This document shows, one piece after another, positions 17,997 to 18,324 of a stretch of 64,000 bases of DNA (its first letter is position 1; every line of letters starts with the position of its first letter). This stretch comes from Clostridia bacterium (lineage in GTDB: Bacteria; Bacillota; Clostridia; TANB77; CAG-465): NCBI GenBank assembly GCA_045537895.1, contig JAZSQI010000044.1, positions 6,307-70,306 of the forward strand. Direction: 5' to 3'. The translations under genes and the position numbers were made by a program. The notes beneath the pieces are model-generated. The model searched no databases. It saw nothing but the letters and a program-made list of their open reading frames with translations, and was not told the DNA's origin.

Positions 17997-18025
17997 TTGA
18001 CAAGAAATACACGTGATGGTATAAT
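17997..18025 (+). promoter_or_regulatory. Strong extended -10 promoter of the candidate antitoxin sRNA
   Basis: TTGACA (17997-18002), 17-nt spacer, TGgTATAAT (18017-18025). Confidence 0.65.
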
Positions 18026-18031
18026 ATATAT

Positions 18032-18111
18032 AGCATTATATAAAATGATGTTTTAATTATGTCAGACAATGATTAACGAGAAAGTAGCTGGAACTATTTT
18101 CTCTTTTTTTT
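18032..18111 (+). ncRNA. Candidate ~80-nt antitoxin sRNA (type I TA-like)
   Basis: Bounded by the promoter above and the terminator GAGAAA...TTTTCTC + T8 (18078-18111). Nt 18057-18077 (TTATGTCAGACAATGATTAAC) can pair with 20 of 21 nt of the start region of the convergent toxin mRNA. Confidence 0.55.
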
Positions 18112-18135
18112 GCATACAAATTAATATATTAGCAT

Positions 18136-18170
18136 AAAATAAAAGTAGCTCGTACTGGAATACGAACTAC
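18136..18170 (-). terminator. Terminator of the small toxin-like gene
   Basis: On the minus strand, GTAGTTCGTA-TTCCAG-TACGAGCTAC is followed by TTTTATTTT. Confidence 0.6.
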
Positions 18171-18176
18171 TTTGAG

Positions 18177-18260
18177 TTATTTTCTATTCTTTTTATGGTT
18201 GTTTAGCTCCCTTGTTAGTAGTAACATTAAGAATAGAACTATTATTAGGTCAGACAACAA
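18177..18260 (-). CDS. 27-aa hydrophobic peptide with basic C-terminal tail (type I toxin-like): MLSDLIIVLFLMLLLTRELNNHKKNRK
   Basis: GAGAGGAGG SD lies 6 nt upstream of the TTG start at 18260. The stop is TAA at 18177-18179. The gene has its own promoter and terminator, and the SD is buried in a 5' hairpin. Confidence 0.5.
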   Translation of the reverse strand: MLSDLIIVLFLMLLLTRELNNHKKNRK

Positions 18261-18295
18261 TTAACACCTCCTCTCATACCAGAGTTGGTGTTTTT

Positions 18296-18324
18296 ATTAT
18301 ACGTACTAAAATATGGCTAAACAA
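18296..18324 (-). promoter_or_regulatory. Promoter of the toxin-like mRNA
   Basis: On the minus strand: TTGTTT (18324-18319), 17-nt spacer, TATAAT (18301-18296). Confidence 0.5.

Follow-up and report, generated by a model that had tools for sequence, protein, structure and literature searches.

A 64,000-nucleotide (nt) window of contig JAZSQI010000044.1, by which is meant the whole stretch of DNA that was analysed, derives from a gut metagenome and carries, between topB and the gene for a 170-amino acid (aa) protein of an uncultured gut Clostridium, a tiny unannotated gene pair, referred to here as the module. The module comprises a predicted small RNA (sRNA) gene on the plus strand and one small open reading frame (ORF) on the minus strand, the two being convergent and non-overlapping. 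In an original prediction, made from the sequence of the window, the pair had been described as type I toxin-antitoxin-like. The coordinates given there are all exact by string search and every listed feature is present, including the extended −10 promoter on the plus strand, the terminator hairpin and T8 run that would end an sRNA of ~80 nt, the TTGTTT-N17-TATAAT promoter on the minus strand, a leader fold that buries the Shine-Dalgarno (SD) sequence of the peptide messenger RNA (mRNA), and a hairpin terminator after the ORF, which is listed by the terminator scanner with 14 pairs. The features are as follows.

17997–18025, plus strand: sRNA promoter, TTGACA-N17-TATAAT with a TG extension, score 12/12
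18032–18111, plus strand: predicted antitoxin sRNA of ~80 nt, both ends deduced from the promoter and terminator
18033–18051, plus strand: 5′ hairpin, part of the predicted sRNA
18057–18077, plus strand: antisense patch, on the DNA a direct-repeat copy (D3) of 18245–18265
18078–18103, plus strand: sRNA terminator hairpin with loop CUGGAA at 18088–18093, followed by T8 (U8 in the RNA) to 18111
18112–18133, unstranded: spacer of ~22 nt between the two predicted 3′ ends, hence genes without overlap
18173–18134, minus strand: peptide mRNA terminator with a 14-base pair stem (18173–18142) and loop UUCCAG at 18160–18155
18183–18237, minus strand: long-range mRNA helix, in which the xLFL codons (18237–18229) pair with the KNR codons (18191–18183)
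18257–18177, minus strand: small ORF of 26 codons plus stop with a TTG start, peptide MSDLIIVLFLMLLLTRELNNHKKNRK
18265–18245, minus strand: sRNA target on the mRNA, beginning with the final G of GGAGGUG, crossing the start codon, and reaching into codon 5
18292–18263, minus strand: 5′ stem-loop formed by AACACC:GGUGUU and CUCU:AGAG pairing, burying the SD GGAGG at 18271–18267
18324–18296, minus strand: peptide mRNA promoter, TTGTTT-N17-TATAAT, weaker than the sRNA promoter
18340–18372, unstranded: A/T-rich motif upstream of the peptide promoter, approximately ATGAYAAAAC..AYAAAATATGACA.CAAA, from an alignment of 11 modules

Terminator-like sites are more frequent across the region than expected (four versus 0.3). 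Promoter-like sites as a class are not enriched (eight versus 10.1 expected), and two 12/12 sites stand out among them. The −35 element of the peptide promoter matches the consensus at only three of six positions, so that this promoter was left unlisted by the promoter scanner. The predicted sRNA folds with an energy of −19.1 kcal/mol (z = −3.7 versus shuffled sequences), and the whole predicted mRNA has z = −5.1 by the same kind of comparison. Both the 5′ stem-loop and the long-range helix between the xLFL and KNR codons appear in the minimum-free-energy fold of the mRNA. The ORF had been given as 27 codons (18260–18177), beginning at the first of two adjacent TTG codons. The ORF itself is present and a start at 18260, yielding 27 aa, is possible, but translation probably begins at the second TTG (18257), yielding 26 aa, because that start is conserved by the relatives; L008, the closest member of the same specificity class, carries TTA at the position of the first TTG of the window. 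The peptide consists of an apolar core and a basic tail.

Conservation of the module and its coding sequence

The comparison set contains 17 modules (that of the window and 16 others) from ~12 distinct loci of related gut Clostridia. The contigs encoding 11 of the 14 members of the 170-aa protein family were taken as syntenic loci. In all of these loci except L035, the order is topB, intergenic region, 170-aa gene, Ca-ATPase gene, and rhodanese gene, and every intergenic region of the topB-type loci carries the same module; in three locus types (L001, L013–L016, and L031), two modules are found in tandem. Identities of 85–90% between TopB proteins indicate that the module-bearing organisms are genus-level relatives. 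Third-codon identity in topB and the Ca-ATPase gene is only 0.61–0.69, and unconstrained sequence has therefore had time to diverge.

Over this distance, the 5′ SD hairpin, both promoters, and both terminators are conserved. A promoter scoring 12/12 or nearly so lies at the equivalent position ahead of every sRNA gene, and the sRNA of the window matches a profile built from the other modules with E = 2.7e-13 (nhmmer). The peptide promoter of the relatives reads TTGTAA or TTGATA-N17-TATAAT, with an invariant −10 element. The SD-burying stem-loop is retained in 14 of 14 modules, its closing pair alternating between A-U and G-C, and U·G variants are also seen. Similarly, the gap between the two predicted 3′ ends is 21–22 nt in all modules. 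The long-range helix, which in the relatives joins the xLFL codons to KNK codons, is predicted by RNAalifold, with five of its nine pairs changed on both sides in four to five sequences. Preservation of the ORF and of the complementary patch in relatives had been named beforehand among the observations on which the original prediction could fail, being the one of these that can be checked in silico, and both are clearly preserved. The A/T-rich motif at 18340–18372 is likewise retained by every locus of the topB type and may be an UP element or the site of a regulator; to our knowledge, it fits none of the LexA, Spo0A, CodY, Rex, or Fur consensus boxes.

The ORF behaves as a gene throughout the set. 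In all 17 modules, the start codon (TTG in 15, ATG in two) is located 5–9 nt after GGUG and is followed by a peptide of 23–31 aa with the consensus M-x-(D/E)-x-I-x-x-LFLM-LLL-x-(K/R)-ELN-x-KKNKK. Proportional differences per site are ~0.76 for synonymous changes (pS) and ~0.24 for nonsynonymous changes (pN), giving a pN/pS of ~0.3, and pS is the larger of the two in each of the 91 pairs. Third codon positions are variable in 18 of the 18 codons examined, as compared with seven of 18 for second positions. Only the peptide frame is open, the other two frames being full of stops. These substitution patterns show that the ORF is a real coding sequence under purifying selection.

The alternative that both transcripts are noncoding, or that the module is a repeated intergenic element whose 26-codon frame is incidental and conserved via RNA structure, draws on the fact that codons 2–5 lie inside the sRNA target and that a helix with co-variation joins the LFL codons to the KNK codons. 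RNA structure of this kind would account neither for a GGAGG held at a fixed 5–9 nt from the start codon in 17 of 17 modules nor for a sole open frame with low pN/pS in every pair, and synonymous swaps of Leu, Phe, Glu, and Asn codons also occur outside the paired segments. We consider this explanation very improbable.

A scan of the GTDB species genomes with the leader pattern returned two real carriers and one chance match. The first carrier, a metagenome-assembled genome (MAG) labeled "Clostridia bacterium", is the same contig as L004; the second, L017, is a MAG labeled "uncultured Clostridium sp." and has an array of at least four modules in an unrelated context, the neighbors being genes for a 169-aa protein and a beta-CASP nuclease, pth, and rplU. 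The module is thus independent of its neighbors at the topB locus. The 169-aa gene was considered as a homologue of the 170-aa ORF and rejected (hhalign probability of 0.1%). In one copy of the L017 array, a 10-nt deletion removes exactly the SD, and no sRNA terminator is found upstream (~60–190 of the reverse complement). Between two other modules of the array (~800–850 of the reverse complement) lies the 3′ half of a transfer RNA (tRNA), consisting of the T arm and CCA, with no complete tRNA; this fragment may be an old integration scar.

Other searches for the module gave no match in viral contigs (two patterns) or in plasmids and phages (blastn), and no second copy was found within the window (nhmmer). 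In metagenome contigs, the leader pattern recovered only the leaders of IS200/IS605 tnpA genes, which are unrelated to the module. These matches (L020, L022–L027, L029, and L030), which come from environmental metagenomes, contain TATAAT, a short hairpin, and GAGGAGGTG, and the tnpA leaders share with the module the layout of an SD in a hairpin directly after the −10 box.

Two predicted antisense contacts and their co-variation

The antisense patch of the predicted sRNA (18057–18077) and its target on the peptide mRNA (18265–18245) can form 18 Watson-Crick and two G·U pairs with one mismatch, exactly the 20-of-21-nt complementarity over the translation start that had been predicted. The duplex energy is −23.7 kcal/mol, as compared with −12.9 ± 3.0 kcal/mol for shuffled patches, and is equaled by one of 1000 shuffles. 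At least five to seven classes of patch and target sequence can be told apart among the modules, such as GUCAGACAAUGAUUAAC, UCGUUCAAUUGUUUGC, GUAUAAGGUU..AAGUC, and UCAGUCAAUAUGUAUGAC, and within each module the two are matched; in several modules, the repeat at the start region comes in two parts. Cognate duplexes have energies of −24 to −29 kcal/mol, and noncognate duplexes average −13.8 kcal/mol. With the register of patch and target fixed, a mean of 15.1 pairs is formed at 18 positions, as compared with 9.0 ± 0.8 when partners are permuted; the observed mean is reached by none of 5000 permutations, and between three and five kinds of standard pair are seen in most columns over 15 distinct modules. 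Tandem modules of one locus belong to different specificity classes. The gain in energy on cofolding is −16 to −22 kcal/mol for cognate RNAs and only −1 to −8 kcal/mol between the two modules of one tandem locus, and tandem modules are therefore orthogonal by this measure.

A second contact, which was absent from the original prediction, is provided by the terminators. The loops of the sRNA and mRNA terminator hairpins are complementary in 14 of 14 modules tested, over 6 nt in the window (CUGGAA/UUCCAG) and over up to 12 nt elsewhere. Four loop variants are seen, CTGGAA, CTGTAAC, TTACCGC, and CTAGAAC. As for the patch and its target, the two loop sequences are direct repeats on one DNA strand (D4, the patch and target being D3).

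Direct repeats on one strand could be homogenized by recombination, and on this view the complementarity would be a by-product of a local duplication maintained by gene conversion, with no interaction between the RNAs. This possibility appears barely credible in light of how the repeat copies differ. Transitions between the two DNA copies preserve pairing through G·U in 30 cases and break it in four, and the wobble-compatible changes occur in both chemical directions, T/C and G/A alike. Such a bias is predicted by selection for pairing; gene conversion or drift toward AT alone would not give it. Further, the repeats are just 6–21 nt long, are located at functional sites of both transcripts (the translation start and the hairpin loops), and lie inside units that have conserved promoters and terminators.

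A strain that is ~96% identical, seen in four gut metagenome runs, provides a comparison at closer range. In the strain, a C-to-T change at 18077 converts a G-C pair of the patch to G·U, a C-to-T change at 18149 converts a G·U pair of the peptide mRNA terminator to A-U, and the ORF differs by one synonymous Leu change and R16K. All four changes at ORF or paired positions preserve the model and count as support for it. Other differences do not bear on the model: G to T at 18033, near the 5′ end of the sRNA, one T fewer in the T-run at 18104, and G to T at 18303 in the spacer of the peptide promoter. Many more changes are present in the unconstrained spacer further to the right.

Interpretation and genomic context

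The module thus combines a maintained ORF for a hydrophobic peptide with an adjacent gene for a complementary RNA that has its own promoter and terminator, which are two of the generic features of a type I system. We favor, at a probability of ~70%, the interpretation that this is a type I toxin-antitoxin-like module of the chromosome, with a mode of action like that of par on the Enterococcus faecalis plasmid pAD1. Selection on the ORF, co-variation of patch and target, and the conserved elements support the earlier view of a functional or recently functional pair, and they suggest that the locus is functional and selected as opposed to decaying.

In the proposed mechanism, the moderately strong minus-strand promoter (18324–18296) would produce an mRNA of ~155 nt (~18291–18134) that encodes the 26-aa peptide and whose first 30 nt would fold and hide the SD. 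The extended −10 consensus promoter at 17997–18025 would produce the ~80-nt sRNA from the convergent neighboring gene. By analogy with par, the sRNA would first kiss the mRNA at the terminator loops (CUGGAA:UUCCAG), and its 21-nt single-stranded patch would then zip onto the stretch of mRNA that begins just behind the SD, includes the UUG, and extends into codon 5. This pairing would keep ribosomes from loading and might also make the duplex accessible to RNase III. Two further brakes on translation, the burial of the SD and the weakness of the UUG start, would act in addition to the sRNA. Peptide would be made, with membrane damage or growth arrest as the result, only once the sRNA is scarcer than the mRNA.

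Several observations weigh against this interpretation. The module stands beside the same 170-aa gene and Ca-ATPase operon in 12 of 13 loci, as would fit a local physiological role. The strictly apolar run of the peptide, L4–L14, spans 11–12 residues and is shorter than a usual membrane span. No relevant match was obtained for the peptide together with all 14 paralogues in Pfam, NCBIfam, or PHROGs, and the peptide profile matched no PDB sequence, including those of the solved Fst and PepA1 structures. Searches for RNA-seq runs that contain the locus gave none, and both transcripts are predicted. Finally, in L035 (positions 401–1000), an IS200/IS605 Y1 transposase gene occupies the place expected for the sRNA gene, while the gene for the peptide (MENLILVLFLMILLIKELNRNKRSKH) seems undamaged, as do its SD and promoter. 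The right-end hairpin of the transposase unit abuts the old T-run, and the gene to the left is not topB but an unrelated one of ABC-F-like type. L035 could be a real sRNA-less peptide gene; alternatively, it could reflect a rearrangement or a chimera assembled across a repeated insertion sequence. An sRNA-less gene argues against strong toxicity, unless the contig is chimeric or another sRNA copy covers the mRNA.

Peptides of the KdpF, MgtS, and sarcolipin type modulate membrane complexes, and the product of the module might similarly be an sRNA-controlled small membrane protein with a nontoxic housekeeping role, such as modulation of the adjacent P-type Ca2+-ATPase or of another membrane complex. 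The position of the module immediately upstream of the 170-aa, Ca-ATPase, and rhodanese genes in every topB-type locus fits such a role, as do the very short peptide with its 11–12-residue core and polar residues E17 and N24, which are invariant among the aligned peptides, and the apparent tolerance of L035 for a peptide gene without its sRNA. However, transcription of the module leads away from the ATPase operon, and at least four modules of L017 adjoin unrelated genes (that for the 169-aa nonhomologue, the beta-CASP nuclease gene, pth, and rplU). The SD-deleted copy in L017 with no sRNA terminator upstream is what would be expected of an inactivated orphan toxin gene, and three kinds of repression would act on this one short ORF, whose start codon is weak, whose SD is buried, and whose mRNA faces an antisense RNA with a much stronger promoter. 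Tandem copies with mutually orthogonal sRNA specificities are also typical of type I toxin loci (PMC2887945). A nontoxic membrane protein, the strongest of the alternatives, is on balance unlikely. The more specific proposal that the peptide regulates the adjacent SERCA-like P-type Ca2+-ATPase as a single helix gated by the sRNA, and would thus be the bacterial equivalent of sarcolipin or phospholamban, is improbable; if it were true, a par-style RNA circuit would set the dose of the peptide and the specificity classes would allow independent control of paralogous regulators.

The modules keep their scaffold constant and supply a naturally occurring set of at least five to seven predicted sRNA/target specificities that are mutually orthogonal, a ready-made system for studies of how antisense specificity evolves and a source of orthogonal RNA regulators. 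The analysis also illustrates that comparison of syntenic metagenomic contigs can validate a locus of fewer than 30 codons without expression data.

The surrounding sequence shows additional features. The sRNA promoter had been called a near-twin of the promoter of the 170-aa ORF. The similarity is real, with 79% identity over 33 nt (17995–18027 versus 18383–18415), but 14 of the matches are the consensus −35, TG, and −10 positions. A third promoter of this extended form, AATTGACATAA...TGATATAATAT, is found at 37840–37872 on the minus strand, adjoining a tRNA gene (37938–38011); the twin therefore reflects a general strong-promoter consensus of this genome, and the twin promoters probably owe most of their likeness to it. 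The idea that they mark a locus-specific duplication scar is correspondingly weakened, the same extended consensus being present elsewhere in the window. In the tandem loci, the next sRNA promoter occupies the position equivalent to the twin promoter of the 170-aa ORF, and recombination between such promoters may have produced the tandem duplications.

The 170-aa ORF (18465–18977) counts as an orphan: its known relatives number 14, it belongs to neither a Pfam nor an NCBIfam family, and it evolves very fast, with 37–41% identity where TopB is 90% and the Ca-ATPase 92% identical. On the other side of topB, the 1.2-kilobase gap between rpsO and topB (14855–15995) is without a credible ORF and contains two paralogous units of ~540 and ~610 nt. 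Each unit has an 11–12/12 promoter (14861–14889 and 15394–15421) with the palindrome TTGATATTAAYTATATATCAAGGA just downstream, and GC-rich hairpins are located at 15327–15344, with a T-run, and at 15916–15936. The second unit is 80–85% identical in L009 and L013, as compared with ~61–69% at neutral sites, and neither unit matches an Rfam family. These units may represent a large unknown noncoding RNA or a long topB leader.

Comparison with known type I systems

The original prediction took tisB/istR-1 and zor/orz as its models, and this part of it does not stand: par is closer by virtue of its convergent layout, start-spanning repeats, SD stem-loop, and terminator loops. In par of pAD1, the promoters are convergent, direct repeats read in opposite directions cover the toxin initiation region, a 5′ stem-loop encloses the SD, and complementary terminator stem-loops start the interaction (PMC7472228). 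Similar to par (Fst/RNA I–RNA II) and the par-like loci of Firmicutes, the module has convergent promoters, predicted here, and a small hydrophobic peptide with a charged tail and a non-AUG start. In addition, the SD of both systems is covered by a 5′ stem-loop, direct repeats that are read in either direction span the translation initiation region, complementary terminator stem-loops offer a second contact, and chromosomal copies lie beside core metabolic or transport genes.

The main differences between the module and par are the terminators and the peptide. Whereas par has a shared bidirectional terminator, the module has two terminators with 3′ ends 21–22 nt apart, and its loop complementarity comes from two separate hairpins that carry the same loop sequence; the complementary loops of these separate terminators may keep the function of the par terminator contact. 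The signatures of Fst are a PxxxG(C) motif, a Trp that is conserved behind the helix, and a tail that is charged (PMC7472228, PMC2887945). The module peptide, at 23–31 aa versus 33 for Fst, keeps only the charged tail. Pro, Gly, and Trp occur in none of the 14 aligned peptides, and the PxxxG and Trp signatures of Fst/Ldr are therefore missing. Unlike par, neither the sRNA nor the peptide of the module matches an Rfam, Pfam, or PDB entry, the Rfam searches giving nothing for the sRNA at E ≤ 10 over the region and nothing relevant at the gathering threshold over the window.

The tisB/istR-1, zorO/orzO, shoB/ohsC, and dinQ/agrB pairs resemble the module in having non-overlapping genes, ~20 nt of complementarity, and hydrophobic peptides of 26–29 aa (PMC8594479), and zor/orz also occurs in tandem duplicates, tandem duplication being a hallmark of type I loci (PMC2887945). 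In these systems, however, a divergent sRNA gene is found on the 5′ side of the toxin gene, and pairing takes place in the 5′ untranslated region or at a standby site. In the module, the sRNA gene lies 3′ of the toxin gene and is convergent, the sRNA would pair over the start with an added contact between terminator loops, and the host is Gram-positive.

Two further comparisons are with Gram-positive systems. CD2517.1-RCd8, CD0956.2-RCd10, and other type I pairs of Clostridioides difficile share with the module a host among the Clostridia, convergent genes, a hydrophobic N-terminal part with a lysine-rich tail, and a lack of annotation because of size (PMC5961336, PMC6563280). They differ in that their RNAs overlap extensively, their toxins are 34–59 aa long, and their context is a prophage or a clustered regularly interspaced short palindromic repeat (CRISPR) array (PMC6563280), whereas the module has no overlap, a 26-aa peptide of no sequence similarity, and a place in the core chromosome (rpsO-topB). 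SprA1/SprA1AS of Staphylococcus aureus is similar in its pairing at the translation start outside the 3′ overlap and in its membrane-active peptide of ~30 aa, but its RNAs overlap at their 3′ ends and its toxin is of the Fst family (PMC8594479).

In T1TAdb, all Gram-positive families have an antisense RNA that overlaps at the 3′ side, and the families listed as non-overlapping belong to Gram-negative hosts and carry the sRNA 5′ of the toxin (PMC8594479). The module, which is 3′-sided, convergent, and non-overlapping, is therefore a layout variant. The comparisons suggest a new peptide and sRNA family that unites par-like control with a non-overlapping layout, one in which the two-contact logic of par, a kissing loop and the translation start, has apparently been kept without overlap of the transcripts by means of two terminators with matching loops.

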